Shown here in pieces: positions 8,016 to 55,354 of a stretch of 64,000 nt of DNA (position 1 is the first letter of the stretch; every line of letters starts with the position of its first letter). The position numbers were made by a program, and so were the translations under genes. A model generated the notes under the pieces. It made no database searches, was not told the origin of the DNA, and worked only from the letters and a program-made list of their open reading frames with translations. Origin of the DNA: Kofleriaceae bacterium (lineage in GTDB: Bacteria; Myxococcota_A; Polyangia; Haliangiales; Haliangiaceae); the NCBI GenBank assembly GCA_044230415.1, contig JBGARE010000001.1, positions 497,195-561,194 on the forward strand, read 5' to 3'.

Positions 8016-8050
8016 CGCCGGTCGGACTGTAACTCGGGTATGCTCGCTGC

Positions 8051-10054: not shown

Positions 10055-10183
10055 GGCATGTCCACGCGCCGTGCCAGCGTAGGCACGCGGAGCGCCGAGT
10101 GCCTCCGCGCTCGCCGGTGCGCGATGACGCTACGTTGTAGCTCGTTGGACGGGCGCGGCGGCGGACCGTGAGTCGGTCGATCG

Positions 10184-19253: not shown

Positions 19254-19368
19254 CCGCGTGTAGGCGCCGGTAGTTCTACTTCGATAACCGATCGATAGCT
19301 CTCGGTTCTCGACGGCCGGTGCTACCATGGGCTCGCTTATGGTCGATTACATCGACGAGGGAAGCTTC

Positions 19369-19920
19369 ATGAGACACCCGCGTCGTGGATTCACGCTGAT
19401 CGAAATGATGATCGTGGTCGCGCTCATCGCGATCCTGGCGATCGTCGTTGTTCCGTCGTTCTTCCGCGAGAGCGGCAAGACTCGCTCGATCACCGAAGTG
19501 ACGCCGATGTTCGCCGAGATGGCGAACAAGCTCGAGCAATACAAGTCCGACACGGGCAAGTACGTGAACGCGACGACGCTACAGAACGACACGCCCGTCG
19601 TCTGCCCGTCGGCGCCGAGCAGACCGGGCGTCGACGCACTCACCACGTGTGTCGGTAGTGGATCCGCGTGGGCCGATCTGCGCGTGAATCCGCCGCAGTC
19701 GAAGCTGCACTGCAGCTACGAGATCCAAGTCGGCGACGTCGGTGATTCGTATATCGGCGCGCTGCCGGCGGGCATCACGTTCACCGCGCCGACGACGATC
19801 GGCTGGTGGACGCTTCTCGCCACGTGCGATGCGGATGGCCAAGGAACGTCGTCGGTGAACGGCAAGTTCTTCCAGTCGAGCGTGGACGCCACCATCCAGA
19901 AAGTGAACGACGCGCTGTGA
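19369..19920 (+). CDS. Type IV pilin-like protein (prepilin-type N-terminal cleavage/methylation domain)
   Basis: MRHPRRGFTLIEMMIVVALIAILAIVVVPSF is the class III signal peptide with the conserved G-1/F+1/E+5. An AT-richer promoter-like region lies upstream (19254-19368). Confidence 0.8.
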   Translation: MRHPRRGFTLIEMMIVVALIAILAIVVVPSFFRESGKTRSITEVTPMFAEMANKLEQYKSDTGKYVNATTLQNDTPVVCPSAPSRPGVDALTTCVGSGSAWADLRVNPPQSKLHCSYEIQVGDVGDSYIGALPAGITFTAPTTIGWWTLLATCDADGQGTSSVNGKFFQSSVDATIQKVNDAL

Positions 19921-20432
19921 CTCGCAGGCGTTCACACGCGGGCTTCACGCTCGTCGAGATGATGGTGGTCGTCGCGATCGTCGCGATCCTCTCCGGCCTT
20001 CTGATTTCGACCTCGAGTCGTCCGGTCGGTGCGAACGCGCGGAACATGTCCGAGACCGTGGTCTCGACGATCAACTTCGCGAAGCTCCGTGCTGGCGCGA
20101 CCCGCCGCGTGCACACGGTGCAAATCACCGATACGCAGCTCGCCGTGTACGCCTGCGCCACCACCGGCCTCGTCTGCACCACGCCGCCCGGCGATCTGAT
20201 CCAGCAGGTCCGCGTCGCCAAGGGCGTCACGATCCTGAACACGTCGAGCACGCTGTACCCCGCGGGTGGTGCGAGCGTGTCGGCGCCGTCGAGCGCGCTC
20301 AACTCCGCGCTCGCCATTCGCCCCGACGGTCAGGCGACGCCAATGACCATCTTCCTCACCGACACGAAGGACTCGTGGCGCGTGCTCGTCTATCACGTGA
20401 CCGGCGGCGCATACGCGCGACAGGGTTGGTAA
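19917..20432 (+). CDS. FimU/FimT/GspH-like minor (pseudo)pilin
   Basis: GTG start overlapping the upstream stop (ctGTGA). VTRRRSHAGFTLVEMMVVVAIVAILSGLLIS is a prepilin signal. The size and pattern resemble the GspH/FimT family. Confidence 0.7.
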   Translation: MTRRRSHAGFTLVEMMVVVAIVAILSGLLISTSSRPVGANARNMSETVVSTINFAKLRAGATRRVHTVQITDTQLAVYACATTGLVCTTPPGDLIQQVRVAKGVTILNTSSTLYPAGGASVSAPSSALNSALAIRPDGQATPMTIFLTDTKDSWRVLVYHVTGGAYARQGW

Positions 20433-20439
20433 CGGAGCC

Positions 20440-23400
20440 TTGGAGAACACCATGCACCAAACACCCAAGCTCATCGGCAAGCTCGTCACTACCATCGCTC
20501 TCGTCGGAGTGACGGCGGTGGCGACACCAGCGCTTGCCGACACGAAGGACTTCAAGGCGGGCTCGCTCATCATCCCCGCGACCTCCGTGTTCCAGACCGA
20601 CTGCGGTGCCGTGTCGATGTACGGCCTGATCTACAACGTGCTTCGCGCGAACGCGTGGCTCGATGCCGATCCGGGCTACGGCCCGATCGAGATCTACTAC
20701 GCGTACAACACCGCGAAGAGCTCGCCGAATCGCTGTACGCCGACGAACCTGCACACGAGTCCGACGGTGTCGACCACGTGGGAGGATGGCTGCGACTTCG
20801 CGATCAGCGATAGCGGCGGCACGACCAACATCGTGTCGCTCGTGAACAACAAGGTCGCCACCACCGACTCGACGATCACGACCTACGACACGAGCGGCAA
20901 GGGCAACGTCTACCCGCGCTACGCGCTCTCGCAGGTGATCACCGCGGCTGCCGGCGTGAACACGGTCCGGTACTCCGGCGGTGCGTTCGTGATCGACAAG
21001 TCCGATGCGGACACGTTCATCGGTCTGCTCCGCGGAACGATCCCCGCGAAGGACAACGGCGTCACGATCAACTACGCGCCGTGGCGCCTGTCGGACGCTG
21101 CGGGCGTCCCCACCGCATGCACGTTCAACACGGCGTGGTCGACGTCCACCGTCGGCGGCTGGGTCAACATTCACCGCGCGCTTGTCGACTTCACGGCACC
21201 GGTCCCCAAGCTGTTCAACTCGAACCCGCCGCGCCTCGCGCTGCTCGCGCTCGACACCTACAACGGCACGGGCACGCTCTCGAACAACATCCTCCAGGGC
21301 TACCTCAGCCGCGCCGGTCTCACGTTCACGGGCGCGAACGGCTGCCCGACAAACAGTCCACACAAGCTGATCGCCGCGACCTGTCCCACCGGCGACACGA
21401 GCGGCGAGATCTACGACACGTTCGACTTCGACGACGTCCTCAACGACCGACTCGACAACACGAAGTACAAGATGTTCTGGGCGCCGCACTGGGAGCTGGA
21501 CAGCTCGACGGGTGGCGGCACCTTGAACGAGAAGGCGGCGATCACGAAGATCGCCACGTTCCTCGAGGGCAAGACGGGCGTGATGGCGGAGTGCGCGTCG
21601 ATCTCGAGCTTCGAGGGCTCGCAGAGCCGCGAGTCAGGGACCGAAGCGAAGTTCCAGACCTGTGAAGATAACGCCGGCGCATGTGCCAGCCCTGAAGGAA
21701 ACCGTGGTTTCCAGGTGAACTCGGGCGGCTGGATCTCGTCCGATCCGAGCGGCCTCTTGCGCAACTGCACCGATGCCACCACGAGCGTCGGCGGCAACTG
21801 CTACTACATCTCGTATCCGTCCGATCCGTACGTGCAGATCGGTGACTTCCGCTGGTACGCGGACGATGGCGTCGTCGCGGACTTCCTGCCCAATACGGCG
21901 TCTCCCGCGGCGCGGTACAAGAACGGCGTCCTACCGCTGATCTCGGGCGTGACCGCCAACGATGTCACGAAGCTCGATACACCCGCCAATGCACGAGCGA
22001 GCGGGCTGCTCACGGGTGACTACGTGTCGCGCAACCAGAAGGACGACGCCGCGGGGAAAGGCAACATCCTCTACCTCGGTGGCCACGACCTGACCGAGTC
22101 CGTCGCCGGTACGAAGGTGGCGCTCCAGACGCTGCTCCAGCTCGGCACGCCGGATGTCACGTCGTACACGACGGAGATCTCGCGCGCGACGCCGATCATC
22201 GCGCTCCTCGGTAGCGGCCAGGCGCTGGTGCAGGGAACGTACGAGTCGGTGCAGCCGATCGCCGGTACGCCGAAGAAGATGACGCTCGACACCGATGCAC
22301 CCACGTTCGAGTTCCCCTTCGTGCGCGGCCACCTCCGTGGCTACACGAACGTCGGCACGACCGCGGCGACGTTCGAGACGCTCGGCGCCTCGACCTGGGA
22401 CACGACGACGCTCATCCCGACCGCGGACTACGCCGGTTGCACGCCGTTCACCGCGAATTGTCGCACGGTGTTCACGAACCTCGTCGCGAGCTGCAGCCGC
22501 GACTCGACGAAGTGCACGAACACGGTGCTCTCGGATGACACCGCGGACGAAGTGGGACCGCTGATGGCGAGCGATCTTCTGCCCGCCACGCAGACCACGT
22601 TGGTCCGCCGCACGCTGGAAGGTGTTCCCGATGCCTTGCTGGCGAACAAGTACAAGGCGCGGCTCGGTGGCATCGATCGTTCGACGGTCGCGGTCATCCC
22701 GCAGAGCTCGCTCGCGGGTCTCGGTGCGCGTCCGACGATGATCTACGTGGGTGCGAGCGACGGCATGATCCACGCGATCTGCGGTGACAGCGTCGCTCCA
22801 TGCGATACCCCGGGACGCGAGCTGTGGGCGTTCCTCCCGCGCAATCAGTTGTCGTCGGTGCGCAACAACGAGACGCGGATCGATGGGTCGGTGCGCGTGC
22901 AGGACATGTACGGCAACTTCGACGGGACCGGAAAGTCGTATCGCACGGTGCTCGTGTTCCAGTCGTCGCCGGCCGCCGCGACCGCCACGGCAGCGGTGTA
23001 CGCCCTCGACGTGACGTTCCCCGGTGCCCCCAAGATCCTCTGGGAGCATCCGACGAACGGTAGCGGTCTCGCGATCACGATGGGCAAGATCAGCACCGGC
23101 CAGCTCGCCGCCTTCGCAGAGACCAACAGTGGTACGTCGACGGCGGCCACGGAGGTTCGCGCGATCGATGTCGAGACCGGCCTCGCGATCTGGACGAAGT
23201 CGATCGCGATGCCGGCCTCGCGCACGGTGTCGCGTCAGGTGCCGGCCACCGGCATCCCGGGTGGTGCGGTCGCGGTCGATCTCACCGACAGCGGAAGCAT
23301 GACCGACGTCGTGTTCGCGACTTTGTACGGCCAGATCTTCCGGTTGAACGCAGCGGACGGCGTCAATCCGTACGAGCCGAACCCGCTGTTTCAATTCACG

Positions 23401-23967
23401 GAAGACTTGAAGCCGTTCGGTGCGGCGCCGGCGTTGTTCGCGAGCGGGCAGGTCTACGCGGTCGCCGCGTCGGGTGGCTACCTCGACTACGACACCGATA
23501 CCGAGCCGCTGTGGACGAGCAGCAGCACGATGCAACAAGCGGTTGCGGTCGCGATCAACACGCCGGTCGCGAGCACGCCCCTGACCGAAACGACGACGCC
23601 TTCGCCGACCGGCCTCAAGTTCAAGTACGACCTCGGCGCGGGACAGCTCAGCTACTCGCAGGCACAAGTGATCGGCGATCAGATCTTCCTGACGACGGAC
23701 ACCACCGACGTCAACGCGACGTCGTACGGCACCGGTAGCGACACGGGCACGCTGCATCGCATCGACCTCTCGGGCGGCAGTGCGACGACGATCGCGATCA
23801 TGGGTGGTGCGGCGAGCATCGGTCGTCAGGGCACCACGACGTTCGCGGCGACGGGTGAGAAAGCGCAGCAGCTCTCGCTGTCGGCCGGATCGTCCGCACC
23901 GACCGAGGGTGTCAATGGTGGCTCGCAATCGAAGGTGACGCGTCGCCTCTGGCTCCGCACGCTATGA
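20440..23967 (+). CDS. pilY1: PilY1-like type IV pilus tip-associated adhesin (paralog B), about 1170 aa
   Basis: Signal peptide (LIGKLVTTIALVGVTAVATPALA). Collinear with pilY1-A throughout (DFKAGSLIIPATSVFQTDCGAVSMYGLIYNVLRA…, beta-propeller motifs MIYVGASDGMIHAICGD, ELWAFLPR, AVYALDVTFPGAPKILWEH). Confidence 0.8.
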   Translation: MENTMHQTPKLIGKLVTTIALVGVTAVATPALADTKDFKAGSLIIPATSVFQTDCGAVSMYGLIYNVLRANAWLDADPGYGPIEIYYAYNTAKSSPNRCTPTNLHTSPTVSTTWEDGCDFAISDSGGTTNIVSLVNNKVATTDSTITTYDTSGKGNVYPRYALSQVITAAAGVNTVRYSGGAFVIDKSDADTFIGLLRGTIPAKDNGVTINYAPWRLSDAAGVPTACTFNTAWSTSTVGGWVNIHRALVDFTAPVPKLFNSNPPRLALLALDTYNGTGTLSNNILQGYLSRAGLTFTGANGCPTNSPHKLIAATCPTGDTSGEIYDTFDFDDVLNDRLDNTKYKMFWAPHWELDSSTGGGTLNEKAAITKIATFLEGKTGVMAECASISSFEGSQSRESGTEAKFQTCEDNAGACASPEGNRGFQVNSGGWISSDPSGLLRNCTDATTSVGGNCYYISYPSDPYVQIGDFRWYADDGVVADFLPNTASPAARYKNGVLPLISGVTANDVTKLDTPANARASGLLTGDYVSRNQKDDAAGKGNILYLGGHDLTESVAGTKVALQTLLQLGTPDVTSYTTEISRATPIIALLGSGQALVQGTYESVQPIAGTPKKMTLDTDAPTFEFPFVRGHLRGYTNVGTTAATFETLGASTWDTTTLIPTADYAGCTPFTANCRTVFTNLVASCSRDSTKCTNTVLSDDTADEVGPLMASDLLPATQTTLVRRTLEGVPDALLANKYKARLGGIDRSTVAVIPQSSLAGLGARPTMIYVGASDGMIHAICGDSVAPCDTPGRELWAFLPRNQLSSVRNNETRIDGSVRVQDMYGNFDGTGKSYRTVLVFQSSPAAATATAAVYALDVTFPGAPKILWEHPTNGSGLAITMGKISTGQLAAFAETNSGTSTAATEVRAIDVETGLAIWTKSIAMPASRTVSRQVPATGIPGGAVAVDLTDSGSMTDVVFATLYGQIFRLNAADGVNPYEPNPLFQFTEDLKPFGAAPALFASGQVYAVAASGGYLDYDTDTEPLWTSSSTMQQAVAVAINTPVASTPLTETTTPSPTGLKFKYDLGAGQLSYSQAQVIGDQIFLTTDTTDVNATSYGTGSDTGTLHRIDLSGGSATTIAIMGGAASIGRQGTTTFAATGEKAQQLSLSAGSSAPTEGVNGGSQSKVTRRLWLRTL

Positions 23968-24365
23968 CCACGCACCGCAAACCACGTCTCCGTCGGCGTC
24001 GTCGTGGCGTCGGCTTCACCATGATCGAAGTCATGGTGGCGCTGCTCCTCACCGCGATCGCGGCGTCGGGAATCATCGCTCTGTTCATGGTGCAGACGCG
24101 GTCCTCCGGATACTCGCGTCACGCCACGGAAGCGACGATCCTCGCGCAGGACGAGATGGAGCGCTTGCGTGCGATGAACATCAACGCCGGTAGCGGGACC
24201 GCGTCCGGGCTCAACGAGTTCGGGCAGACCGGCGGCATCTTCACGCGTAGCTGGGCGATCACCGCGAGCGCGGGCTCGCACCTCGACGTCACCGTGTCGG
24301 TGTCGTGGGACGAGGATGGCAACGCACCGCGGACGGTCACCCTCGTCTCGAGGAAGAGCCCGTGA
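23964..24365 (+). CDS. pilV: PilV-like minor pilin
   Basis: RRRRRGVGFTMIEVMVALLLTAIAASGIIALFM prepilin signal, about 130 aa. ATGA overlap with the pilY1-B stop. Confidence 0.7.
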   Translation: MTTHRKPRLRRRRRGVGFTMIEVMVALLLTAIAASGIIALFMVQTRSSGYSRHATEATILAQDEMERLRAMNINAGSGTASGLNEFGQTGGIFTRSWAITASAGSHLDVTVSVSWDEDGNAPRTVTLVSRKSP

Positions 24366-25369
24366 GTCGTCGCATCGCCAGACGTCGCCGCCGTGGAGGC
24401 TTCACGCTCGTCGAGCTGATGGTGTCGCTCGTGATGTTCTCGTTCGCGATCGCGGGCGTGCTGGCGGTGGCCGTGTCGATGGCGAACGGGTTCCGCGAGC
24501 AACGCGCGGGCGTCGGCACCGAGGGCGCGGCGCGGTCGGCGATGGAGTTTCTGAGCGATGCGATCCGCGGCGCGAGCCCCGGTATCGAGAGCGGCATCAT
24601 CTATCCGATGGATGACTCGGAGTGCAACACGGTCACCGGCCTCGCCAACGGCGTGAACCGTTCGTTCCGCGCGACGATGGGCAACGCGACGGCGCCCGAT
24701 TCGGTGACGGTCACGTTCGCGTACGGCTCTGTCGTCACGACGGCCCTCACCGGGTACGACACGGCGGCGCTCGGCGGTACGATCACCGTCGAGAACGGGT
24801 CGCAGTTCCAGAACGGTGACTTCATCGTGCTGACGGACTTCTCGAACGCAGTACTGATCAAGGTCGATGTCTCGGGCAACACGCTCACCTACGACGCGAC
24901 ACCGGCGTGTACGCAAGCGATCAACATTCCGGCGGGCGCGCTCGCCATTCGTGCACTGCGCGCGCGGTTCTACATCCAGAACCTCGACGGTATCCCGACG
25001 CTGTTCATGGATCCCGATCCGACCGACGGCGTGACCAACGACGACGAGCCGCTCGCCGAAGGCATCGAGGATCTCCAGGTCGTGCTCGGCATCGACTCCG
25101 GCTCCGACGGGCTCGGTGCGGAGAATGCTGTGGTCGACGGCGACGAGTGGTGGGGCAACCTGCCGGGCGAGACGATTCCCACGACCGGCGCGATCACGAT
25201 GCGTGCGGTGCGTCTCTCGCTCGTCGCTCGTGCCCTCGTCCCCGTTAGCGGTACGGCGTCGTACTTCCGGCCCGCGCTGGAGGATCACGACGGCAGCACC
25301 ACCGACAATTTCCGGCGACGTGTGCTCACGTCGATCATCGAGGTCCGCAACATGTTGGGGTCCAAATGA
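24362..25369 (+). CDS. pilW: PilW-like minor pilin
   Basis: GTG start overlapping the upstream stop (GTGA). VSRRIARRRRRGGFTLVELMVSLVMFSFAIAGVLAV prepilin signal. About 335 aa, typical of PilW. Confidence 0.7.
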   Translation: MSRRIARRRRRGGFTLVELMVSLVMFSFAIAGVLAVAVSMANGFREQRAGVGTEGAARSAMEFLSDAIRGASPGIESGIIYPMDDSECNTVTGLANGVNRSFRATMGNATAPDSVTVTFAYGSVVTTALTGYDTAALGGTITVENGSQFQNGDFIVLTDFSNAVLIKVDVSGNTLTYDATPACTQAINIPAGALAIRALRARFYIQNLDGIPTLFMDPDPTDGVTNDDEPLAEGIEDLQVVLGIDSGSDGLGAENAVVDGDEWWGNLPGETIPTTGAITMRAVRLSLVARALVPVSGTASYFRPALEDHDGSTTDNFRRRVLTSIIEVRNMLGSK

Positions 25370-32486: not shown

Positions 32487-33215
32487 GTGGGCTCCGTGAA
32501 GCTCCCCGTGGTGGCTGCTTTCGGACTCGTCCTGGGAACGGTCGGCGGGGCATGGGCACAGGGTGTCGCGCCGGCCAAGGAGCCGGACGGGACGCCACCG
32601 CCGTCGAGCCCGCCCGATGCGACTCCCGAGGCACCCCGCCCTCCCGGGACATCGGGGCCGGTGACGTTCTCGCACAAGGGCCAGATCCAGGCCTCCCTCC
32701 GGCTGTCGCTCGGAATGCGCGCGATCGTCGCGTACGACGACGCCGACTACTGCGGCGAGACGGACTCGATGAGCAGCACGGGCAACAAGGCCGTGTGCAC
32801 GGGCCGGGTGCCGTTCTCGTTCGACTTCGAGCTCGGCTACGGCATCGCGCGCAAGATCGACCTGATCGCAGAGTTCCGCATCGGCATCGAGAACGACTTC
32901 ACCGCGACGTTCACCGGCGCCGGCGATGGCCCGCGCATGTTCCACTTCTCGCCCGGCGCGCGGTTCTTCTTCAGCGATGCAAAGACGATGAAGCTGTTCA
33001 CCACCGCGCAGGTGGTGTTCGACTTCGCGGGCTACAAGGACGCGGCGGGCAACGACCGCGGCGCGGACTTCGGTGTTCGCAACTTGAACGGCCTGTGGCT
33101 CGATCTCGATCGTGCCTACGGGTTCTATGCCTATGTGGGCGAGACCGCGACGTTCGGGCGTTGGCTCCTCACCGAGCTCGAGCTGGGCGCGGGAGTCTCG
33201 GCACGATTCCGCTGA
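32487..33215 (+). CDS. Hypothetical secreted / outer-membrane beta-barrel-like protein
   Basis: Signal peptide (VKLPVVAAFGLVLGTVGGAWAQG), a Pro-rich linker, then alternating amphipathic strands ending …GAGVSARFR. Confidence 0.5.
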   Translation: MGSVKLPVVAAFGLVLGTVGGAWAQGVAPAKEPDGTPPPSSPPDATPEAPRPPGTSGPVTFSHKGQIQASLRLSLGMRAIVAYDDADYCGETDSMSSTGNKAVCTGRVPFSFDFELGYGIARKIDLIAEFRIGIENDFTATFTGAGDGPRMFHFSPGARFFFSDAKTMKLFTTAQVVFDFAGYKDAAGNDRGADFGVRNLNGLWLDLDRAYGFYAYVGETATFGRWLLTELELGAGVSARFR

Positions 33216-33235
33216 TCGGCGCATCGTAGCCGTAC

Positions 33236-33985
33236 ATGACCTCGCCGACCTTCGCCGACCACTTCTCGTCTGTCGCGAAAGGGTACGCCGCCTATCGGCC
33301 CACGTATCCGCCGGCCCTCGCCGCCACGCTCGCGGAGCGCTCGCCGCGCGGCACCGCGTGGGATGTCGGGTGCGGCAACGGTCAGCTGTCGGTGGACCTC
33401 GCGGACCACTTCGACCACGTGATCGCCACGGATCCCGCGAAGGCGCAGATCGACGCGGCGGAGCCGCACCCGCGCGTCGAGTATCGCGTCGCGAGCGCCG
33501 AAGACTCGGGCCTCGCCGACCACAGCGTCGAGCTCGTCGTCGCCGCGCAGGCCGCCCATTGGTTTCAGTGGGACCGATGGATCGCCGAGGTCGAGCGCGT
33601 CGCGGTGCCCGGCGCGCTGATCGCGCTCGTCAGCTACGGCATCATCTTCGTCGAAGGCGACGCCGCGAACGCGCTCGTCGAGCGCTACTACCACGACGAG
33701 GCGGGCCCGTTCTGGCCGAAGGGACGCGAGCACGTCGAGAATGGCTATCGCGACCTCGTGCTCCCGTGGCCCGCCGTCGAGCCGCCGGTGCTCGAGATGA
33801 CGGCGCGCTGGACGCGCGACGAGCTACTCGGCTACGTGAACACCTGGTCCGCGACCGCGAAGCTGACGCAGGTCAAAGGCGATGCGCCCGTGCGCGCGCT
33901 CTCCGACGCGCTCGCCGCGGTGTGGCCCGACGGCGAGATCCGCACGGTGACCTGGCCGCTCTCGATCCGTCTCGCGCGTCGCTAG
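33236..33985 (+). CDS. Class I SAM-dependent methyltransferase
   Basis: Motif I VGCGNGQLSVDLA, an acidic-loop motif, and typical MTase length. Confidence 0.8.
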   Translation: MTSPTFADHFSSVAKGYAAYRPTYPPALAATLAERSPRGTAWDVGCGNGQLSVDLADHFDHVIATDPAKAQIDAAEPHPRVEYRVASAEDSGLADHSVELVVAAQAAHWFQWDRWIAEVERVAVPGALIALVSYGIIFVEGDAANALVERYYHDEAGPFWPKGREHVENGYRDLVLPWPAVEPPVLEMTARWTRDELLGYVNTWSATAKLTQVKGDAPVRALSDALAAVWPDGEIRTVTWPLSIRLARR

Positions 33986-34015
33986 CGTGCTGAACGCGCG
34001 CTATAACCAGCGGCG

Positions 34016-34825
34016 ATGTATCGGCTGCTCGCGCTGGATCTCGACGGGACGCTGCTCAAGCGCGATCACACGGTCGACGAGCGCGATGTCGCCGCGATCA
34101 ACGAGCTGCAGCGCGCGGGTGTCACCGTCACGATCGTCACGGGGCGGCTCCACTCGGGCTCGGTCGCCGCGGCGCGTGCGTGCGGTATCGAGGGTGTGAT
34201 CGCGTGCGTCGAGGGCAGTCACCTCGTCGAGCTCGCGTCGAACACCACGCTCGTGCATCACGCGATCGAGCCGGAGACGTCCGCGTTGCTGCGCCAGACC
34301 ATCGGCGCGAACGGGCTCGTGCCGTTCGTGTTCGACGCACAGGGTATCCACCACGATCACGCGGGCGCCGCGTACGCGCACTACGTGAGCACGTGGTCAC
34401 CGAACCTGCGCATCGTCGAAGAGGACGTCGCATGGCAAACCGAGCCGCTCGCTGCCGTGGCGATCGGCGACGAGGCGGCGGTGTTGGCCGCGGCGCAAAC
34501 GCTGCGCGCGCACGCGGATCGCTTGTTCTCGGTGAACTTCCAGGTGTGGACGATCGCCGGCAAGCACGCGCTCCTCGCGCGAGCGGCGGGGCCGAGCAAG
34601 GGCACCGCGCTGCGCGAGCTGTGTGCGCGCATCGGCTGCTCCGTCGAGGAGGCGGTCGCCGTCGGCGACTGGATGAACGACATCCCGATGTTCGAGGTCG
34701 CCGGGCGCTCGTTCGTGATGGGCGGCGCGCCGGAGGCCATCTCGTCGACGGCCACCGACCAACTCGAGTCTGCGAGTGGCGGTGGCGGTGGCATCGCGGA
34801 GGCGATCAGGCGAGCATGGGGCTAG
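34016..34825 (+). CDS. Cof-type HAD-IIB family hydrolase
   Basis: LLALDLDGTLL (DxDGT motif I), …GD..ND… motif IV (VGDWMNDIPMF). Confidence 0.85.
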   Translation: MYRLLALDLDGTLLKRDHTVDERDVAAINELQRAGVTVTIVTGRLHSGSVAAARACGIEGVIACVEGSHLVELASNTTLVHHAIEPETSALLRQTIGANGLVPFVFDAQGIHHDHAGAAYAHYVSTWSPNLRIVEEDVAWQTEPLAAVAIGDEAAVLAAAQTLRAHADRLFSVNFQVWTIAGKHALLARAAGPSKGTALRELCARIGCSVEEAVAVGDWMNDIPMFEVAGRSFVMGGAPEAISSTATDQLESASGGGGGIAEAIRRAWG

Positions 34826-34831
34826 TCCCCA

Positions 34832-36334
34832 TTGGCAGCCGAGCGTCGAAGAAAAAAGCGGAAGTACAACGATGGCGTGTTCGCGCTGTCGCGCAAGTTC
34901 ACGCTGACTCCGATCTCGCACGCCACAGAGCTCGAGGGCCCGTTTCTCGTCGAGCCGGCGTGGGACGGTCATCGCGTGCTCGCGACGCGGATGGGCACGC
35001 AGGTCCGGCTCGCCGCGATCGACTATCGCGATTGGACGCAGACGTTCCCCGCGGCGGCAGCGGCGCTCGGCAAGCTGGGCTCGTCGTCGATCGCGATCGA
35101 CGGCATGATCTGCGTGTTCGACGAGCACGGTCGCCCGTCGTTCGACGCGCTGCGCGCGAAGGTGCAGAGCGGCGCCGCGGTGATGTCGGCCGCGCTGATC
35201 TGCTGGGACCTCTTGTGGCTCGACGACGAAGATCTGCGCGGGCTCCCGCTGCGCGAGCGTCGCGAGCGATTGATCGCGCTGCTCGCGGACGCGCCGAAAG
35301 CGATCCTGCCGTCGCAGGCGCTCGACGGTGCGCCGGCGAAGGTGTTGACCGCGGTCGCCGCGCACGGCATTCGCTCCGTCGTGGCGCGCAACGCGGCGAG
35401 CACCTACGACGCCGCGTGGACGGTGCATGGCGAGCGCGTCGATTGGCAGCGTTCGCTGTCCCCGCCGCCGCCGATGTCGAACGCGGACAAGGTGCTCTAT
35501 CCGCGCGATGGCATCTGCAAGCGCGACATCATCGGCTACTACCGCGATGTCGCGCCGCTGCTCGTGCCGCAGCTGCTCGATCGCCCCGTCGTGATCCAGC
35601 GCTGGGTCGACGGCATCGACGAGTTCGATTGGTACCAGCACCGCGTGCCGCCGCGATCGCCGGACTACATCCGCGCGGCGTGGGTCGATGGCGTGCGCCG
35701 GATCGTCGTCGAGAACGTCGACGCGCTGCTGTGGATGGTGAACCAGGCGGGGCTCACGTTTCACGGCTTCGCATCGCGACTGTCGTCGTTGCCGGAGCCG
35801 GACTACGCGATGATCGATCTCGATCCGGGCGATCGCACGACCTGGTGGGACGACATGATCGATGTCGCGCTCGGCATTCGCAAAGTGCTCGAGCTGCTCG
35901 AGCTGCCGAGCGTGGTCAAGACCAGCGGTCAACGCGGCATCCACATCCTCATCCCGCTCGCATCCGGCCACGACTTCGCCCAGGCCGAGACGCTCGCGCG
36001 CGGCATCGCCACGCTGGTCCAGACGCTGATCCCCGACAAGGTCACGCTCGAGCAGGAGAAGGAGAAGCGCTTCGGTCGCCTGCTGATCGATCACAAGCAG
36101 TTCATGGCGAAGACGCTCGTCGTGCCGTACTCGCTGCGCGGCGCCGACGGTGCTCCGGTGTCCACGCCGCTCGCGTGGGACGAGGTCACGCACGCGCTCG
36201 TGCCGAAGGCGTTCACGCTGCGCACGTTGCGCGCGCGCCTCGACGAGCGAGGCGATCTCGCCGCTCCGCTCCTCGAGGGAACCGCGCAGCTCGCACCCGC
36301 GCTCGCGCAGCTGCGCGCGGCCGGCGCGATCTAG
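34832..36334 (+). CDS. LigD-related protein: N-terminal ligase-like adenylation module (motif I Lys replaced by Ala) fused to a LigD polymerase/primase (PolDom) domain
   Basis: Residues about 215-500 match LigD PolDom (KVLYPRDGICKRDIIGYYRDVAPLL… MIDLDPGD… KTSGQRGIHILIPL… STPLAWDEV). The N-terminal about 215 aa align with ATP-dependent ligase motifs (FLVEPAWDGHRV = motif I with K->A, IAIDGMICVFDEHGRPSFDAL, LICWDLLWLDDEDLRGLPLRERRERL), but are too short to include an OB domain. Confidence 0.7.
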   Translation: MAAERRRKKRKYNDGVFALSRKFTLTPISHATELEGPFLVEPAWDGHRVLATRMGTQVRLAAIDYRDWTQTFPAAAAALGKLGSSSIAIDGMICVFDEHGRPSFDALRAKVQSGAAVMSAALICWDLLWLDDEDLRGLPLRERRERLIALLADAPKAILPSQALDGAPAKVLTAVAAHGIRSVVARNAASTYDAAWTVHGERVDWQRSLSPPPPMSNADKVLYPRDGICKRDIIGYYRDVAPLLVPQLLDRPVVIQRWVDGIDEFDWYQHRVPPRSPDYIRAAWVDGVRRIVVENVDALLWMVNQAGLTFHGFASRLSSLPEPDYAMIDLDPGDRTTWWDDMIDVALGIRKVLELLELPSVVKTSGQRGIHILIPLASGHDFAQAETLARGIATLVQTLIPDKVTLEQEKEKRFGRLLIDHKQFMAKTLVVPYSLRGADGAPVSTPLAWDEVTHALVPKAFTLRTLRARLDERGDLAAPLLEGTAQLAPALAQLRAAGAI

Positions 36335-38520
36335 CGCTTCGCGCGGCGATCGGGCTCGTCGTTCATCTGCACGAGGAACCCGAACTCTTCCGCGACTTCG
36401 TGGAGTTGATCGAAGCGTCCGGACGCACCACCGTGGCCCGAGGTCATGTCGGTCACCAGCACGAGCGTGTTCGTGTCCGTCTTCGTCGCGCGCAGCTTCG
36501 CGACCCACTTCGCGGGCTCGAAGTACTGCACCTGGCTGTCCCACAGCCCCGTGCGCACGTAGATCGCCGGGTACGCCTGCGCCTTGACGTTGTCGTACGG
36601 CGAGTAGCTCAGCATGTACTCGTACGCCGCTTTGTCCTCGATCGGGTTGCCCCACTCGACGAACTCGCCCGTGGTCAGCGGGATCGAGACATCGATCATC
36701 GTGGTGATCACGTCGACGAACGGCACGTCCGCGATCACGCCGCGATAGAGATCCGGGCGCATGTTGACGATCGCACCCATCAAGAGCCCACCGGCGCTGC
36801 CGCCTTTGGCGAACACGCGATTCTTCGCGCCGTACTTCGCCTGTACGAGGTGCTCGGTCGCCGCGATGAAGTCGGTGAACGTGTTCTTCTTGTTCATCAG
36901 CTTGCCGTCGTCGTACCAAGCGCGGCCCATCTCCTGGCCGCCGCGAACGTGCGCGGTCGCCCAGACCCATCCGCGATCGAGGAGGCTCACCCGCGAGTAG
37001 CTGAAGTTCGGCTCCATCGCGTAGCCGTACGAGCCGTAGCCGTAGACGAGCAGCGGCGCGGTGCCGTCGATCTTCGTGCCCTTGCGATACACGATCGAGA
37101 TCGGGACCTTCGTGCCATCGCTCGCCGTCGCGTGGACGTACTCGCTCGTGTACAGCGACGCGTCGTAGCCGGGCACCGGTTGTTGCTTGAGCAGCTCGCG
37201 CTTCTTCGTCGCGACATCGAGCTCGAACACGGAGCTCGGCGTGGTCATCGATTGATACGAGTAGCGCACGCGCTTCGCCGACGCGTCCGGCGTGTTCCAC
37301 ACGGACATCACGTACGCGGGATCCTGTGCATCGATCATGAACGCGGCGCCCTTCTTCGGCATCACGCGCACCTTGGATAGCCCGTCGGTGCGAAGGCCTA
37401 CCGCGAGGAAGTCGCGATACACGGCGACGTCCTCGATGAACACCTTGGGATCATGCGCGACGATGTCCTTCCACTTCGCGCGATTGCCGACGTTCGCGTC
37501 GCTCGCTTCGACCAGGCGATAGTTCTTCGCGTGATCGTTCGTGCGGATCACGAAGCGTCCGTCGAGGTGATCGAGGCTGTAGATGTGGCCGCGCTCGCGA
37601 GGCACGACCATGCGCATCGGCGAGCTCGGCTTGTTCGCATCGATCAGGCGCATCTCCGCGCCATCGAGTGAATCGATCGCGACCACGAGGTACGCGTGCG
37701 ACTTCGTCTTGTCGACCTCGATCGAGAACTCGCCGTCCTTCTCCTCGTAGACGAGCGTGGGCTCCTTGTCGCCGATCGCGAGCCGCAGCAGCTTGTCCTC
37801 GCGCAGCGTGACGGGATCCTTGCCCGCGAAGAACAGCGTCTTGTTGTCGTTCGCCCACGCCATCGTCGGGGCGATGTTCGTCGCCGTCTCCGGCAGCAGC
37901 GCGCCCGTCTTCAGATCCTTGATCCGCAGCACGAACTGGTTGCGCCCGACGAGGTCCTCCGCGTACGCGAGCAGCTGCCCGTTGCGGCTGACGTCGAAGG
38001 TTCCGATCTTGTAGAAGTCGTGGCCCTTCGCGAGCGCGTTGCCGTCGAGGAGGATCTCCTCGGCGCCCGTCATCGTGCCCTTGCGGCGGCAGTACAGCGG
38101 ATGCTGCTGCCCGGTCTCGAAGCGCGTGTAGTACCAGTAGCCGTTGTCGAGCATCGGGACGCTCGCGTCGTCCTCCTTCACACGCGCGCGCATCTCGGCG
38201 AACAGCGTGTCGACGAGCTTCGCCGACGGTGCGAGCACCTTCTTCGCGTACGCGTTCTCCGCGTCGAGATATCCGATCACCTCTTTGTCGGTGCGCGTGT
38301 CGTCGCGCATCCAGAAGTACGGATCGTTGCGCACAGGTCCATGCGGCGACGTCAGCGTGTGCGGCACGACCTTCGCGATCGGCGGCCCGTTCTCGTCGGG
38401 TTTCGCTGGCGCGACCGGCTCGACCGGCGCGGGCTCTGGCGTCGGCGTCGGTGCAGGGCGCGCTGGATCGGGAGCCGAGCTACACGCGACGAGGAGGCTG
38501 ATCAGAAGGACGCGGCGCAT
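36331..38520 (-). CDS. ptrB: Oligopeptidase B (S9A prolyl-oligopeptidase family), lipoprotein
   Basis: Lipobox LLVACSS. PtrB-like N-terminal beta-propeller (DPYFWMRDDTR…IGYLDAENAY). Catalytic Ser in GGSAGGLLMG, Asp/His in the C-terminal part (…DMTSGHGG). The 4-bp stops overlap with the convergent LigD-like gene. Confidence 0.9.
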   Translation of the reverse strand: MRRVLLISLLVACSSAPDPARPAPTPTPEPAPVEPVAPAKPDENGPPIAKVVPHTLTSPHGPVRNDPYFWMRDDTRTDKEVIGYLDAENAYAKKVLAPSAKLVDTLFAEMRARVKEDDASVPMLDNGYWYYTRFETGQQHPLYCRRKGTMTGAEEILLDGNALAKGHDFYKIGTFDVSRNGQLLAYAEDLVGRNQFVLRIKDLKTGALLPETATNIAPTMAWANDNKTLFFAGKDPVTLREDKLLRLAIGDKEPTLVYEEKDGEFSIEVDKTKSHAYLVVAIDSLDGAEMRLIDANKPSSPMRMVVPRERGHIYSLDHLDGRFVIRTNDHAKNYRLVEASDANVGNRAKWKDIVAHDPKVFIEDVAVYRDFLAVGLRTDGLSKVRVMPKKGAAFMIDAQDPAYVMSVWNTPDASAKRVRYSYQSMTTPSSVFELDVATKKRELLKQQPVPGYDASLYTSEYVHATASDGTKVPISIVYRKGTKIDGTAPLLVYGYGSYGYAMEPNFSYSRVSLLDRGWVWATAHVRGGQEMGRAWYDDGKLMNKKNTFTDFIAATEHLVQAKYGAKNRVFAKGGSAGGLLMGAIVNMRPDLYRGVIADVPFVDVITTMIDVSIPLTTGEFVEWGNPIEDKAAYEYMLSYSPYDNVKAQAYPAIYVRTGLWDSQVQYFEPAKWVAKLRATKTDTNTLVLVTDMTSGHGGASGRFDQLHEVAEEFGFLVQMNDEPDRRAKR

Positions 38521-41355: not shown

Positions 41356-41385
41356 GTGCGGACAGTAGCCGTATAGTCGGGTGCC

Positions 41386-42591
41386 TTGCACGTCACGGAG
41401 CTGCTCGACGTCATCTTCCGATGGGCGCACTTGATCGCCGGGATCATGTGGGTGGGCAACTCGATGTTGTTCAACTGGCTCGACCGCAACCTCGAGAAGA
41501 GTGCGGAGCTCGGCCGGCTGTCCCAGGGCAAGATCTGGATGCTGCACTCGGGCGCGTTCTACGAGGCCGAGAAGAAGCTGCTCGCCCCCGGCGAGATGCC
41601 GAGCACGCTGCACTGGTTCAAGTGGCAGAACTTCACGACGTGGGCGACCGGCATCTCGCTGTTCATCATCGTCTACTACCTGAACAACACGGCCTACCTG
41701 GTCGATCCGACGCTGCACGATATCTCGCGCGGCGTGGCGCTCACGCTGTCGATCAGCGCGGTGTTCGTCGCCTGGCTGCTCTACGACATGCTGTGGCGCT
41801 ACCTCGGGACCAGGGCGCCGGGTGTCGCCACCGTGCTGACCGTGCTGATGCTGTTCGGCGCGATCTTCGCGTTCGGCCAGCTGTTCAGCGGGCGCGGCGC
41901 GTACATGCAGGTCGGCGTGATGATCGGAACGATCATGACGGGCAACGTGTGGATGGTGATCGTGCCGTCGCAGCGCGAGCTCGTGAACGCGACGAACGAA
42001 GGCCGCGAGCAGGACGCGACGCTGTCGATCCGCGCGAAGCAGCGCAGCATCCACAACAACTACCTGACGTTCCCGCTGCTGTTCATCATGGTCTCGAACC
42101 ACGTGCCGGCGGCGACGGCGCATCCGCTGAACTGGCTGATCCTGATCCTCGTGATGATCGGCGGCGCGGGCGTTCGTCACTTCATGAACGTGCGCTACCT
42201 CGGTGCGGGCAAGCAGCTCGCGAAGTCTCTGTGGCTCGGTCCGGCGGTCGGCGCGGGCGCGTTCACGATCGCGGCGTTCATGGTGGTCACGCGCATCCAT
42301 CCGCCGGGCGTCGCGGATGCGGCGATGCCGGTCTCGTTCAAGCGCGCACACGAGATCATCGCCGTGCGCTGTGCGCCGTGCCATTCCGCGAAGCCGATGG
42401 ACGACATGTTCCAGACCGCACCCGCCGGTGTCGTGCTCGACACGCCGCCGCAGATCAAGATGATGGCAGAGCGGATCCGCGTTCGCGCCGTCGAACAACA
42501 GAGCATGCCGTTCAACAACAAGACCGGCATGACCGCGCAAGAAAGAGGTGAGCTAGGTCGCTGGATTCGCGACGGAGCTCTCCTCGAATGA
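41386..42591 (+). CDS. puuD: Urate hydroxylase PuuD (membrane DUF989 domain fused to a C-terminal cytochrome c)
   Basis: Multi-TM N-terminal domain (HLIAGIMWVGNSMLFNWL…) and a C-terminal CAPCH haem-binding motif. Located with the other purine-catabolism genes. Confidence 0.8.
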   Translation: MHVTELLDVIFRWAHLIAGIMWVGNSMLFNWLDRNLEKSAELGRLSQGKIWMLHSGAFYEAEKKLLAPGEMPSTLHWFKWQNFTTWATGISLFIIVYYLNNTAYLVDPTLHDISRGVALTLSISAVFVAWLLYDMLWRYLGTRAPGVATVLTVLMLFGAIFAFGQLFSGRGAYMQVGVMIGTIMTGNVWMVIVPSQRELVNATNEGREQDATLSIRAKQRSIHNNYLTFPLLFIMVSNHVPAATAHPLNWLILILVMIGGAGVRHFMNVRYLGAGKQLAKSLWLGPAVGAGAFTIAAFMVVTRIHPPGVADAAMPVSFKRAHEIIAVRCAPCHSAKPMDDMFQTAPAGVVLDTPPQIKMMAERIRVRAVEQQSMPFNNKTGMTAQERGELGRWIRDGALLE

Positions 42592-45042: not shown

Positions 45043-45079
45043 TTGAACGCCGACGCATGAAGCGCTGATACTGCGCGCG

Positions 45080-46426
45080 ATGTCCACTCGCATCGTTCGC
45101 TCCACGCGCGTCGTCACCGGAGGCGCGATCACGCCCGCGACGATCCACATTCGCGATGGCGTGATCGATCGGATCGGCGGGCACGACGACGTCGCGGGCG
45201 GGCAGGTCGACGACGTCGGCGACCTCGCGGTGATGCCGGGCATCGTCGACACGCACGTGCACCTGAACGAACCGGGCCGCACCGAGTGGGAAGGCTTCGC
45301 GACGGCGACGCGCGCGGCCGCGATCGGCGGCATCACCACGCTCGTCGACATGCCGCTCAACTCGATCCCCCCGACGACGACGCGCGAAGCGTTCGCCGCG
45401 AAGCGCGCGGCGGCGAAGGGCCAATGCAACGTCGACGTCGGGTTCTGGGGCGGCGTCGTGCCGGGAAACGCGGGCGAGCTCGCGGGCCTCGTCGCCGACG
45501 GCGTGCGCGGCTTCAAGTGCTTCTTGGTCGACTCCGGCGTCGAAGAGTTCGGCTGGGTCGACGAGCGTCACCTCCGTCCGGCGATGCAGATCCTCGCGGG
45601 GCTCGGTGCACCACTGCTCGTCCACGCGGAGGTCGCGGGACCGATCGATGCAGCGACCGCAGCGCTCGTCGCCGCGCACGCGGATCCGACGAAGTACGCC
45701 ACGTATCTCGCCTCGCGACCGGGCGCCGCCGAGGAGCAGGCGATCGCGCTCGTGACCGGGTTGTGCCGCGAGACGCACGCGCGCACGCACATCGTGCATC
45801 ACTCCGCGGCGAGTGCGATCGGTCAGCTGCGCTCGGCGCGCGCCGAGGGACTGCCGCTCACCGCGGAGACGTGCCCGCACTACCTGCACTTCACCGCGGA
45901 GACGATTCCCGACGGTGCCACGCCGTTCAAGTGCGCGCCGCCGATCCGCGACGAAGACAATCGCGAAGCGCTGTGGGGCGCGCTCGCCGAGGGCGTGCTG
46001 GACTTGGTCGCGAGCGATCACTCGCCGTGCTCGCCGAACCTGAAGGCGATGGAGCAGGGCGACTACATGGCGGCGTGGGGCGGCGTGTCGGGACTGCAGC
46101 TCGCGCTGTCGGTGGTGTGGATGGAGGCCGCGCGGCGCGGGCACACGCTGGTGGATGTGGTCCGCTGGATGTGCGAAGGGCCGGCGCGACTCGCGGGCCT
46201 CGCCGGCAAGAAGGGCGCGATCGTTCCCGGCGCGCACGCCGATCTCGTGATCTTCGACGACGCGGGCATCACGACGGTGACGCCCGAGCGCGTCGAGCAT
46301 CGCCACAAGGTGACGCCGTATGCGGGCGAGCATCTGCGCGGTGCCGTGCGCGCGACGTATCTGCGCGGAGAGAAGATTGCCGAGGACGGTCGTGTCCTCG
46401 TGCCGGAGCACGGAGCATTGCTATGA
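45080..46426 (+). CDS. allB: Allantoinase (cyclic amidohydrolase superfamily)
   Basis: PGIVDTHVHLNEPGRTEWEGFATATRAAAIGGITTLVDMPLNS is the allantoinase/dihydropyrimidinase metal-binding N-terminus. Found among the other urate-catabolism genes. Confidence 0.8.
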   Translation: MSTRIVRSTRVVTGGAITPATIHIRDGVIDRIGGHDDVAGGQVDDVGDLAVMPGIVDTHVHLNEPGRTEWEGFATATRAAAIGGITTLVDMPLNSIPPTTTREAFAAKRAAAKGQCNVDVGFWGGVVPGNAGELAGLVADGVRGFKCFLVDSGVEEFGWVDERHLRPAMQILAGLGAPLLVHAEVAGPIDAATAALVAAHADPTKYATYLASRPGAAEEQAIALVTGLCRETHARTHIVHHSAASAIGQLRSARAEGLPLTAETCPHYLHFTAETIPDGATPFKCAPPIRDEDNREALWGALAEGVLDLVASDHSPCSPNLKAMEQGDYMAAWGGVSGLQLALSVVWMEAARRGHTLVDVVRWMCEGPARLAGLAGKKGAIVPGAHADLVIFDDAGITTVTPERVEHRHKVTPYAGEHLRGAVRATYLRGEKIAEDGRVLVPEHGALL

Positions 46427-50111: not shown

Positions 50112-50267
50112 GGCGCTGCTCCAGTCTACAAGGGTGTGCAGCGTGGGACGAGCAGTATCCGTGCCGCGCGGAACCACGCGACATGACTCGTCCTCGTCGA
50201 CAAACGCGGCCGGAATTCGGACGAGGCGGCGGATCGATCTGCGCGTGCGAGTGATACAAACGCGCGC

Positions 50268-51653
50268 ATGACCACGGCGCGTACCTCCCTCTCCGAGAAG
50301 AAGCTGGCGAAAGTTCTGGAGCGCGTGCAGCGCGCGCAGAACAAGGTCTTCGAGCGCTATCCGGGCGACTCCGGCGCGCGCCAACCCGTGCACACCGTGT
50401 ACGGCGGCGCGCATCTGTTCACGGCCGACACCGCGAAGAAGCTCGGCGAGCTCTCGCTGCGCGCGCTCGACACGTACGCCCCCGACGCGGCGTCGTTCTC
50501 CGAAGCGATCGGCATCCGCGGCGATCTCGCGCCGAAGGTCTACGAGCGCGTGCGCGAGAAGCTGCGCCGCGAAGCCGTCGAGGACTTCCGCATCGACTTC
50601 GAGGACGGCTACGGCAATCGCCCCGACGCCGAAGAAGACGGTCACGCCGCCGCCGCGGGCATCCAGGTCGCCGCCGGCATGGCCGCCGGTTCGCTGCCGC
50701 CGTTCCTCGGCATTCGCATCAAGCCGCTGACCCGCGATCTCGCGGCGCGCTCGCTGCGCACGCTCGACATCTTCCTCACCGAGCTTCTCGACAAGAGCGG
50801 CGGTCAGCTGCCGCAGAACTTCGTCGTCACGCTGCCGAAGATCCTCTCGCGTATGGACGTCACCGCGCTCGTCGACACGTTCGAGCTCCTCGAGGAACGC
50901 CTCGAGCTGCCGGGCGGATCGCTCAAGGTCGAGTTCATGGTCGAGACCACGCAATCGATCTTCGATCCGAAGGGCCGCTCGATCCTGCCGCGCCTCCACG
51001 ACGCCGCGCGCGGTCGCCTCACGGGCGCGCACTTCGGAACGTATGACTACACCGCGAACTGCGACATCACCGCCGCGCATCAGCGCATGCGCCACCCGGC
51101 GTGCGACTTCGCGAAGCACGTGATGAAGGTGACGTTCGCGGGCACCGGCGTCATGCTCTCCGACGGCGCGACGAACATCATGCCGATCGCTCCGCACAAG
51201 GGATCGAAGGAAGCACCGCTCCTGACCGAAGATCAGAAGCGCGAGAACAAGGCCGCGGTCTACGCCGCCTGGCGCCTCCACGCCGACGACGTTCGCCACT
51301 CGCTCGTCAACGGCTTCTACCAGGGCTGGGATCTCCACCCGGGCCAGCTGCCCACGCGCTACGGCGCGGTCTACGCGTTCTTCCTCGATGGCTTCGCATC
51401 CGCGAGCGAGCGCCTCTCGAACTTCGTCGGCAAGGCCGCCCAGGCAACGCTCGTCGGCGACGTGTTCGACGACGCGGCGACCGGCCAGGGCCTCCTCAAC
51501 TACTTCCTGCGCGGCATCGCGTGCGGCGCCGTCACCGAGCAAGAAGCGCTCGCGACCGGCCTCTCTCTCGACGAGATTCGCTCGAAGTCGTTCGTGAAGA
51601 TCATGGCCGCACGCCGCGCGCAGCCGGCTCCGTCGGCTCCGTCGGCTCAGTAA
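50268..51653 (+). CDS. Hypothetical protein, possibly an HpcH/HpaI-aldolase / citrate-lyase-beta-like TIM-barrel enzyme
   Basis: 461-aa ORF with an IDFEDGYG segment and an overall pattern resembling PEP/oxo-acid-utilising TIM-barrel lyases. Assignment is weak. Confidence 0.4.
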   Translation: MTTARTSLSEKKLAKVLERVQRAQNKVFERYPGDSGARQPVHTVYGGAHLFTADTAKKLGELSLRALDTYAPDAASFSEAIGIRGDLAPKVYERVREKLRREAVEDFRIDFEDGYGNRPDAEEDGHAAAAGIQVAAGMAAGSLPPFLGIRIKPLTRDLAARSLRTLDIFLTELLDKSGGQLPQNFVVTLPKILSRMDVTALVDTFELLEERLELPGGSLKVEFMVETTQSIFDPKGRSILPRLHDAARGRLTGAHFGTYDYTANCDITAAHQRMRHPACDFAKHVMKVTFAGTGVMLSDGATNIMPIAPHKGSKEAPLLTEDQKRENKAAVYAAWRLHADDVRHSLVNGFYQGWDLHPGQLPTRYGAVYAFFLDGFASASERLSNFVGKAAQATLVGDVFDDAATGQGLLNYFLRGIACGAVTEQEALATGLSLDEIRSKSFVKIMAARRAQPAPSAPSAQ

Positions 51654-55238: not shown

Positions 55239-55354
55239 GTTAGATCGTGACCGCGTGGCCATCGCGTACGGGAGGCGATCTCGGTCAACTCGATCGGGTT
55301 CATCACCCCACGTTGATGTGAAACGCGGTGGCTGCATCGGGCTCTACCCGTTCG

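Follow-up and report, generated by a model that had tools for sequence, protein, structure and literature searches.

A conserved, mis-annotated fusion of a ligase-derived pseudo-enzyme domain and a LigD-type primase-polymerase in Kofleriaceae and related Myxococcota

In two-component non-homologous end joining (NHEJ), Ku is combined with a LigD that seals the break itself, and ku lies within 10 kb of ligD in 75% of conventional systems (PMC7719229). LigD of the Pseudomonas aeruginosa type comprises phosphoesterase (PE), ligase (LIG) and polymerase (POL) domains, and LigD of the Bacillus subtilis type comprises the latter two (PMC8656161). Polymerase domains of this family (PolDoms) also occur as stand-alone proteins, which PMC5663958 describes as repair polymerases dependent on a separate ligase. 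An engineered Mycobacterium smegmatis LigD (LigD-K484A) was described as repair-proficient (PMC12848934). The gene analysed here lies on the forward strand at 34832..36334 of a 64,000-nucleotide stretch (the window) of a Kofleriaceae genome assembly (GCA_044230415.1, contig JBGARE010000001.1, positions 497,195 to 561,194). It encodes a LigD-type primase-polymerase fused to a pseudo-ligase domain, that is, to the nucleotidyltransferase (NTase, adenylation) fold of ATP-dependent DNA ligases without its catalytic residues. The protein is a conserved, currently mis-annotated pseudo-enzyme fusion, a variant of the known LigD-type proteins and not a new kind of system.

The reading frame was taken from the open reading frame (ORF) list and the sequence. 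It comprises 500 codons plus a stop codon and begins with TTG. The pseudo-ligase domain spans amino acids (aa) ~28-200 (34913..35431, +) and was delimited from Pfam, TIGR02779, the Mycobacterium tuberculosis LigD ligase domain structure (1vs0), Foldseek and the per-residue confidence of a predicted model. Pfam DNA_ligase_A_M (PF01068) matched aa 33-194 (E 3.4e-10, profile positions 16-193 of 204). The NCBIfam model of the LigD ligase domain (TIGR02779) matched at 94 bits, well under its cutoff of 228. The 1vs0 sequence aligned with aa 38-193 (E 2e-12), its EGKWDGYR facing EPAWDGHR in the window protein. An AlphaFold2 model built on a 65-sequence alignment had a mean predicted local distance difference test score (pLDDT) of 87.6 and a predicted template modelling score (pTM) of 0.81, with most of aa 40-200 above a pLDDT of 90. 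When the N-terminal part of this predicted model was searched with Foldseek, it superposed on 1vs0 (E 8e-11, ~190 columns, root-mean-square deviation 2.7-2.9), and matches were obtained to the adenylation domains of M. tuberculosis LigD, archaeal ligases and human ligases I, III and IV (E 1e-10 to 1e-8). By their scores these domain matches are far beyond chance, and the module is predicted to have the NTase (adenylation) fold of a LigD LIG domain. The initial annotation had assigned the N-terminal part to the ligases, and the Pfam, TIGR02779 and 1vs0 alignments and the predicted fold all place it there; no alignment pointed away from a ligase origin.

Catalytic positions were compared column by column among 120 close family members, 22 distant members of the same clade and 121 lysine-bearing (active) ligase relatives, the last drawn from an exhaustive profile-free search with aa 1-215. 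The family set comprised 121 sequences of ~500 aa, namely the query plus its 120 best homologues (62-98% identical). The motif I remnant reads EPAWDGHR (aa 41-48; 34952..34975, +). Ala43 stands in place of the adenylated lysine, and its codon, GCG at 34958-34960, was confirmed in the sequence as first reported. Column 43 held lysine in 121/121 active relatives and alanine in 121/121 family sequences (GCG or GCC codons), none of which carried lysine. E41, W44, D45, G46 and R48 were invariant in the family, and P42 and H47 nearly so. In distant sub-clades motif I took the forms ELAWDGHR, EIAWSGYR, ELAWEGQR, EPLLEGVR and EPLFDGLR, never with lysine.

The losses extend to the other motifs. At motif Ia (column 63), arginine was present in 94% of active relatives and the family was variable (Ile, Leu, Glu). 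The motif III remnant, IDGM (aa 89-92; 35096..35107, +), has methionine for the conserved glutamate; column 92 was Glu in 99% of active relatives and Val in 93% of the family, with Met in the window protein. At the motif IIIa position, W125-D126 (35204..35209, +), the phenylalanine of active ligases (98%) is replaced by tryptophan (100% of the Kofleriaceae clade), and Asp126 is common to both groups. Where EGxxxK is expected for motif IV, the protein reads RSVVAR (aa 181-186; 35372..35389, +), both Glu and Lys having been replaced by Arg. These positions were Glu in 97% and Lys in 98% of active relatives; in the family Arg181 was present in 97% and Arg186 in 100%. At the motif V position, lysines are missing from the sequence WTVHG (aa 196-200; 35417..35431, +), which forms a strand in the model. 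W196 is invariant and no conserved lysine occurs on this strand in the family, and the canonical relative at locus L062, from a Myxococcota metagenome-assembled genome (MAG), reads WIKIK. A conserved lysine was also sought throughout aa 1-214 in an alignment of 65 family sequences. None there was invariant or close to it, the first such lysine being K220 in the polymerase domain, and a relocated nucleophile is therefore very unlikely. The initial proposal of a catalytically dead ligase module, made from motif I and the length of the module, now extends to replacements at at least six positions.

The oligonucleotide/oligosaccharide-binding (OB) fold is also missing. At the place it occupies in canonical LigD, there is a short conserved linker, ERVDWQRSLSPPPP (aa 201-214; 35432..35473, +), in which R207, S210 and P212-214 are invariant. 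The NTase fold ends at ~aa 200 and the PolDom starts at aa 215, and the 14 residues that separate them leave no room for an OB fold. The corresponding gap was 10-53 aa in the lysine-less clade versus 142-468 aa in lysine-bearing LigDs. TIGR02779 was matched over positions 11-173 of 302, its OB-fold half having no counterpart, and Pfam gave no match to the OB-fold family PF04679 in the window protein. The module had been judged too short for an OB fold from its length, and both the linker and the end of the TIGR02779 match at position 173 agree. ATP-dependent ligases need an OB fold with motif VI for adenylylation. With the catalytic residues and the OB fold both lost, the N-terminal module should be unable to form ligase-AMP or to seal DNA. 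Judged on its sequence, the protein is not a DNA ligase in the functional sense: the fold is there, but the nucleophile and the OB domain are not, and four further motifs have also been lost.

The C-terminal domain (aa 215-480; 35474..36271, +) was identified from PF21686, PDB and Foldseek matches as a LigD-type primase-polymerase of the archaeo-eukaryotic primase (AEP) fold. Pfam LigD_Prim-Pol (PF21686) matched aa 230-476 (E 1.4e-68, 231.7 bits against a cutoff of 27.4). The best solved structures for aa 215-476 were the Methanocella paludicola NHEJ polymerase (5dmu, E 8e-50) and Prim-PolC (E 4e-33); the POL domains of M. tuberculosis and P. aeruginosa LigD (2iru and 2fao among the matches) aligned with the same residues. 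Foldseek comparison with PolDom structures gave E 5e-23 to 2e-17 and target-normalised TM scores of 0.76-0.86. The part had been called a convincing NHEJ PolDom from the letters alone, and these matches bear that out.

Invariance of polymerase and N-terminal residues was counted over 65 aligned family sequences. K220 and K230 (35489..35521, +), both invariant, aligned with the two lysines of the M. tuberculosis PolDom ('NADKVLYP...TTK' of 2iru) that bind the 5'-phosphate. D329 and D331 of the metal-binding DxD motif (35816..35824, +) are invariant and aligned with FDLDP of the M. tuberculosis PolDom. The nucleotide-binding motif SGQRGIH (aa 365-371; 35924..35944, +) aligned with its TSGSKGLH, and K363, T364, S365, G366, R368, G369 and H371 are invariant. 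The third catalytic aspartate, D420 (36089..36091, +), is invariant and aligned with the Asp of 'VFVDW' in 2iru. The protein has every testable defining feature of the LigD PolDom family, and none of the residues of known importance for PolDom catalysis is lost; the active site is intact and the domain looks fully competent.

Selection on the two domains was estimated from Nei-Gojobori ratios of non-synonymous to synonymous substitution (dN/dS). For the N-terminal domain the ratio was 0.02 against a 98%-identical orthologue and 0.18 against a 90%-identical orthologue; for the polymerase domain the values were 0.08 and 0.17. Motif I codons differed synonymously in five orthologous genes (Ala GCG/GCC; GAG/GAA; CCG/CCC; GAC/GAT; GGT/GGC/GGG). 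The N-terminal domain had 33 invariant positions (65 sequences) and was full-length in every complete clade member, down to 40-45% overall identity. At long range it diverged faster. Identity to distant members was 25-41% for the N-terminal domain versus 55-63% for the polymerase domain, and dN/dS in distant pairs was ~0.5-0.6 versus 0.25-0.3. The N-terminal module is a folded domain under purifying selection and is not decaying. Its initial description as a remnant understates a folded, selected domain with a single ancient origin in a Myxococcota clade. The 90%-identical orthologue in Kofleriaceae MAG F1F2.bin.256 (L008, 4021-5546) is split in two overlapping ORFs; the split falls within the pseudo-ligase domain and is probably a frameshift or an assembly error.

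The basic N-terminal tail ERRRKKRK (aa 4-11; 34841..34864, +) precedes the folded part and is predicted to be disordered (pLDDT <50 for aa 1-13). A tail rich in Lys and Arg was also found in orthologues, and the ~500-aa homologues likewise have a TTG or GTG start codon and a basic N-terminus.

Distribution was scanned using one genome per GTDB species. The scan returned 64 loci, all in MAGs, with identities from 91% down to 40%. Record titles that named a lineage were all of Myxococcota (Kofleriaceae, Haliangiales, Polyangiaceae, 'Archangium sp.' MAGs and Myxococcales), with a few reading only 'Proteobacteria bacterium'. Named homologues came from Kofleriaceae or 'Deltaproteobacteria' MAGs, and NCBI taxonomy places Kofleriaceae within Haliangiales, Polyangia. 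Further lysine-less NTase-Pol proteins of 470-510 aa were found among the representatives of 50%-identity clusters (P0127, P0133 and P0253).

A PolDom tree was made by neighbour-joining, a distance-based method, without support values. In this tree all lysine-less, OB-less proteins apart from P0238 (below) formed one clade, and the closest outgroups were the canonical lysine-bearing LigDs P0157 and P0171. The L062 LigD grouped with P0175 one step beyond these two; no closer active relative was identified in a named genome. It comprises 871 aa with a PE-LIG(+OB)-POL layout and carries EIKYDGYR, DGE, EGLIAK and WIKIK. The simplest history suggested by these sequences is one ancient loss of the PE domain, the OB fold and the catalytic residues from a PE-LIG-POL LigD within Myxococcota.

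A metagenomic protein of 522 aa (P0238), from an unrelated LigD branch, likewise combines NTase and Pol domains without an OB fold. Glu stands in place of its motif I lysine (EFEFDGYR) and Pro in place of its motif IV Glu; its motif Ia, III and IIIa residues and motif IV Lys are intact. From its sequence and placement this layout looks like an independent event, and P0238 may represent a second, convergent pseudo-ligase family. In another metagenomic protein, P0198 (527 aa), the NTase domain lacks the lysine (EPAFPGRR) and comes after a PE domain. The C-terminus of this protein is rich in Arg and Pro, of low complexity, and resembles out-of-frame translation; P0198 is possibly a LigD pseudogene.

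Ku and ligase genes were sought by domain scans and by tblastn. The domain scan of the remaining ORFs of the 64 kb window found no Ku and no other ligase domain. The Ku query for tblastn was a M. tuberculosis Ku sequence, which recovered the L062 ku at E 2e-39 as a positive control. No Ku match was obtained in the window, and of the 69 related loci searched (1.1 Mb of sequence) the sole one with a match was L062, the canonical LigD locus. When ten active ligases were used as tblastn queries, the target gene alone matched in every locus and in the window. The earlier observation that no Ku gene is adjacent was therefore upheld by both methods. All three canonical Myxococcota ligD genes met in this work (L062, and L070 and L071 from other assemblies) adjoin ku in divergent pairs and encode full PE-LIG-OB-POL or LIG-OB-POL proteins, and this agrees with the 75% figure for conventional systems (PMC7719229). 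The L062 pair lies at 5605-6453 (ku, -) and 6522-9137 (ligD, +). A protein database search with the L062 Ku returned named matches from Polyangiaceae and Pendulispora; none was named Kofleriaceae among the 120 matches listed, few of which bore names.

The gene immediately upstream encodes a Cof-type HAD-IIB hydrolase (34016..34825, +; PF08282, TIGR00099) that ends 6 bp before the TTG start. A SAM-methyltransferase gene lies further upstream on the same strand (33236-33985, +), and a prolyl-oligopeptidase-family gene on the minus strand converges on the fusion gene. The HAD hydrolase and fusion genes are probably co-transcribed. A promoter and terminator scan of 33000-36700 found nothing above background and no promoter-like site between the two genes; the sole terminator-like match (34303-34324) lies within the HAD gene and was no better than a shuffled control.

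ORFs of 66 loci were clustered for the analysis of neighbourhoods, and two neighbours alone recurred. The HAD gene was immediately upstream in 35/61 related loci, in the Kofleriaceae clade only, and a urate-oxidase-family gene was downstream in 29 loci. In distant clades the neighbours were unrelated (DAO/GCV_T oxidase, PP2C phosphatase, response regulator, HD-GAF protein). The HAD protein was considered as a DNA 3'-phosphatase partner and this was unsupported, the protein being a generic HAD-IIB member of Cof type well under every specific cutoff. Its resemblance to phosphoglycolate phosphatases was weak, with scores far under the cutoff. That the HAD protein is functionally linked to DNA end processing is only a lead.

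Purine and urate catabolism genes of the window (Urate_ox_N family, 41377-42591; amidohydrolase, 45047-46426; DUF6986, 50187-51653; all +) show synteny with the target gene at many Kofleriaceae loci. An allantoicase/OHCU decarboxylase gene is also present at L002 and L003, and a transthyretin-like gene at L002. Elsewhere in the window, the 2162-aa product of 55322-61810 (+) looks like a polymorphic toxin: it contains FG-GAP and RHS repeats, and its C-terminus is an LHH (HNH/EndoVII-type) nuclease domain. A type IV pilus accessory cluster (17562-25369, +) encodes a PilY1/PQQ-propeller-like protein and two pilin-like proteins with N-terminal methylation signatures, including a PilW homologue; it also contains a 1188-aa ORF with no Pfam match (20401-23967). 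A 1229-aa ORF (10172-13861, +) has coding-like third-position GC content (GC3) and matched no Pfam family at E <= 1e-4.

The preferred reading, given a probability of about 0.8, is that the protein is a LigD-derived repair primase-polymerase whose N-terminal ligase module became a pseudo-enzyme. Like other PolDoms, such a protein would act at breaks or short gaps by filling the gap or extending the ends, and a separate ligase (NAD-dependent LigA or a stand-alone ATP-dependent ligase) would seal the product. The pseudo-ligase domain could serve as a non-catalytic scaffold, or as a DNA- or phosphate-binding module, packed against the polymerase. Such a role is hinted at by the conserved basic tail together with clade-specific conserved arginines in the family (R66, R108, R144, R146, R186 and R207). 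With the ku linkage lost, the protein may not follow the classical operon logic of Ku and LigD. Several points weigh against this reading. The D-G-R residues of motif I and D90/W125 drift in distant sub-clades (EIAWSGYR, EPLLEGVR), and therefore no single ligand pocket is kept across the whole clade. No conserved repair partner was found beside the gene among the clustered ORFs of the 66 loci, and the pathway may be either NHEJ or gap repair. A fixed arrangement of the two domains is suggested only by the modelled pTM of 0.81, and the role proposed for the pseudo-domain only by conservation and arginine gains. All members found come from MAGs or metagenomes.

Database records name family members 'non-homologous end-joining DNA ligase', and the protein might still act as a ligase through a relocated nucleophile or an OB domain supplied in trans. 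Migrated catalytic residues are indeed known in some pseudo-enzymes (PMC10211241). Continued ligase activity is nevertheless highly improbable, given that aa 1-214 hold no conserved lysine, that catalytic residues are replaced at six independent positions, that the protein lacks an OB fold and with it motif VI, and that neither an OB-only gene nor a ligase gene is a conserved neighbour. Just as improbable is a functionless, decaying N-terminal region, or an alanine that arose by assembly or sequencing error. Decay would agree with the faster long-range evolution of the N-terminal domain relative to the polymerase, in both identity and dN/dS, but the domain is retained at full length with low close-pair dN/dS, 33 invariant positions and a pLDDT mostly >90. 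An error is contradicted by Ala43 in 121/121 sequences via two different codons. These results effectively exclude residual ligase activity as well as a sequencing error or a pseudogene.

The remaining alternatives concern what the domain does. It could be an unreactive sensor that binds ATP, NAD+, AMP or 5'-adenylated or 5'-phosphate DNA and gates or targets the polymerase. The Kofleriaceae clade keeps part of the adenylate pocket (D45, G46, R48, D90, G91 and W125 of motifs I, III and IIIa are invariant) and has a basic residue, R186, at the phosphate-contact position of motif IV. However, the ribose-contacting Glu of motif III and the motif V lysines are gone, and the domain is still retained in distant sub-clades where the pocket drifts (AWSG, AWEG, LLEG; Ser at position 125; Glu for D90). 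A sensor is unlikely on this balance, though clearly less so than an active ligase or a decaying domain. Similarly doubtful is a role as a protein-protein adaptor, in which the domain would recruit Ku or a stand-alone ligase and the whole protein would be the polymerase-scaffold subunit of a split NHEJ machine. Ligase-dead LigD does support NHEJ in mycobacteria (PMC12848934), and Ku exists in Myxococcota, including Polyangiaceae, which is home to distant clade members. Against this, no Ku was found at any of ~60 pseudo-ligase loci, versus ku beside 3/3 canonical Myxococcota ligD loci, and the 120 listed Ku matches, few bearing names, included none named Kofleriaceae. A more specific proposal is somewhat less likely again, namely that the lysine-less NTase has been neo-functionalised into a non-catalytic module that reads a nucleotide, a 5'-phosphate or a 5'-adenylated end and targets or gates the polymerase in a Ku-independent, Myxococcota-specific form of break or gap repair. 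If true, this would be the first 'pseudo-ligase' in nature to have a demonstrated function.

Pfam matches to both ligase and PolDom occur in more than 400 database proteins of the family, several of which are named 'non-homologous end-joining DNA ligase'. Databases that call the protein a DNA ligase are almost certainly wrong. Domain-based NHEJ censuses (scheme in PMC7719229) would count the family as LIG+POL LigD. No description of a natural lysine-less or OB-less LigD was found in the full-text literature searched, in a LigD structural review, in a ligase review or in an NHEJ census, which is not proof of absence. As a pseudo-enzyme fusion, the family is nature's equivalent of the ligase-dead LigD made in the laboratory, and selection has maintained it over deep divergence. 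Retention of a dead domain over such divergence argues that the LigD adenylation domain has a non-catalytic job worth keeping. The lost ku linkage also leads one to ask which ligase works with the protein in these uncultured myxobacteria, and whether any end-binding factor does. P0238 suggests that a similar OB-less layout arose on at least one other, independent occasion.

Compared with canonical LigD of the P. aeruginosa PE-LIG-POL type, of which the L062 protein is the nearest example found, the window protein has the same LIG-then-POL order and a homologous NTase fold. Its PolDom is 51% identical to that of the L062 LigD, and the signature WYQHRVPP is common to both. It differs in having no PE domain, no OB fold and no ku linkage, and in the replacement of all ligase catalytic residues. 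Of the features of two-component NHEJ, it therefore has neither ku near ligD nor a self-sealing LigD. The two-module LIG-POL layout without a phosphoesterase domain is shared with B. subtilis-type LigD (PMC8656161). The ligase of the B. subtilis protein is complete and active (NTase plus OB), whereas the window protein holds only a dead NTase half.

The engineered M. smegmatis LigD K484A has Lys replaced by Ala at the same motif I position and an intact POL domain, as in the window protein, but keeps the other ligase motifs and the OB fold, both of which the window protein has lost. In mycobacterial NHEJ with a ligase-dead LigD, LigC supplies backup sealing. The K484A mutant is described as NHEJ-proficient (PMC12848934), and therefore a LigD without sealing activity can still be useful. 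P0238-type proteins share the NTase-Pol layout without OB and the loss of the motif I lysine, and differ in belonging to another branch and in keeping most other motif residues.

The best structure matches were the Methanocella paludicola NHEJ polymerase (5dmu) and mycobacterial Prim-PolC (5op0, 6sa0), with Foldseek E 5e-23 to 5e-21. Stand-alone PolDom proteins of this kind have no ligase-like domain, unlike the window protein. Prim-PolC is described as part of a LigC complex, whereas the window gene and its relatives have no ligase gene nearby; the pairing of a PolDom gene with a stand-alone ATP-dependent ligase gene, as in the LigC/Prim-PolC excision-repair module, is thus not seen here. By analogy with these systems, the window protein is most like a stand-alone PolDom (Methanocella Pol, Prim-PolC) that bears a LigD-derived pseudo-domain.

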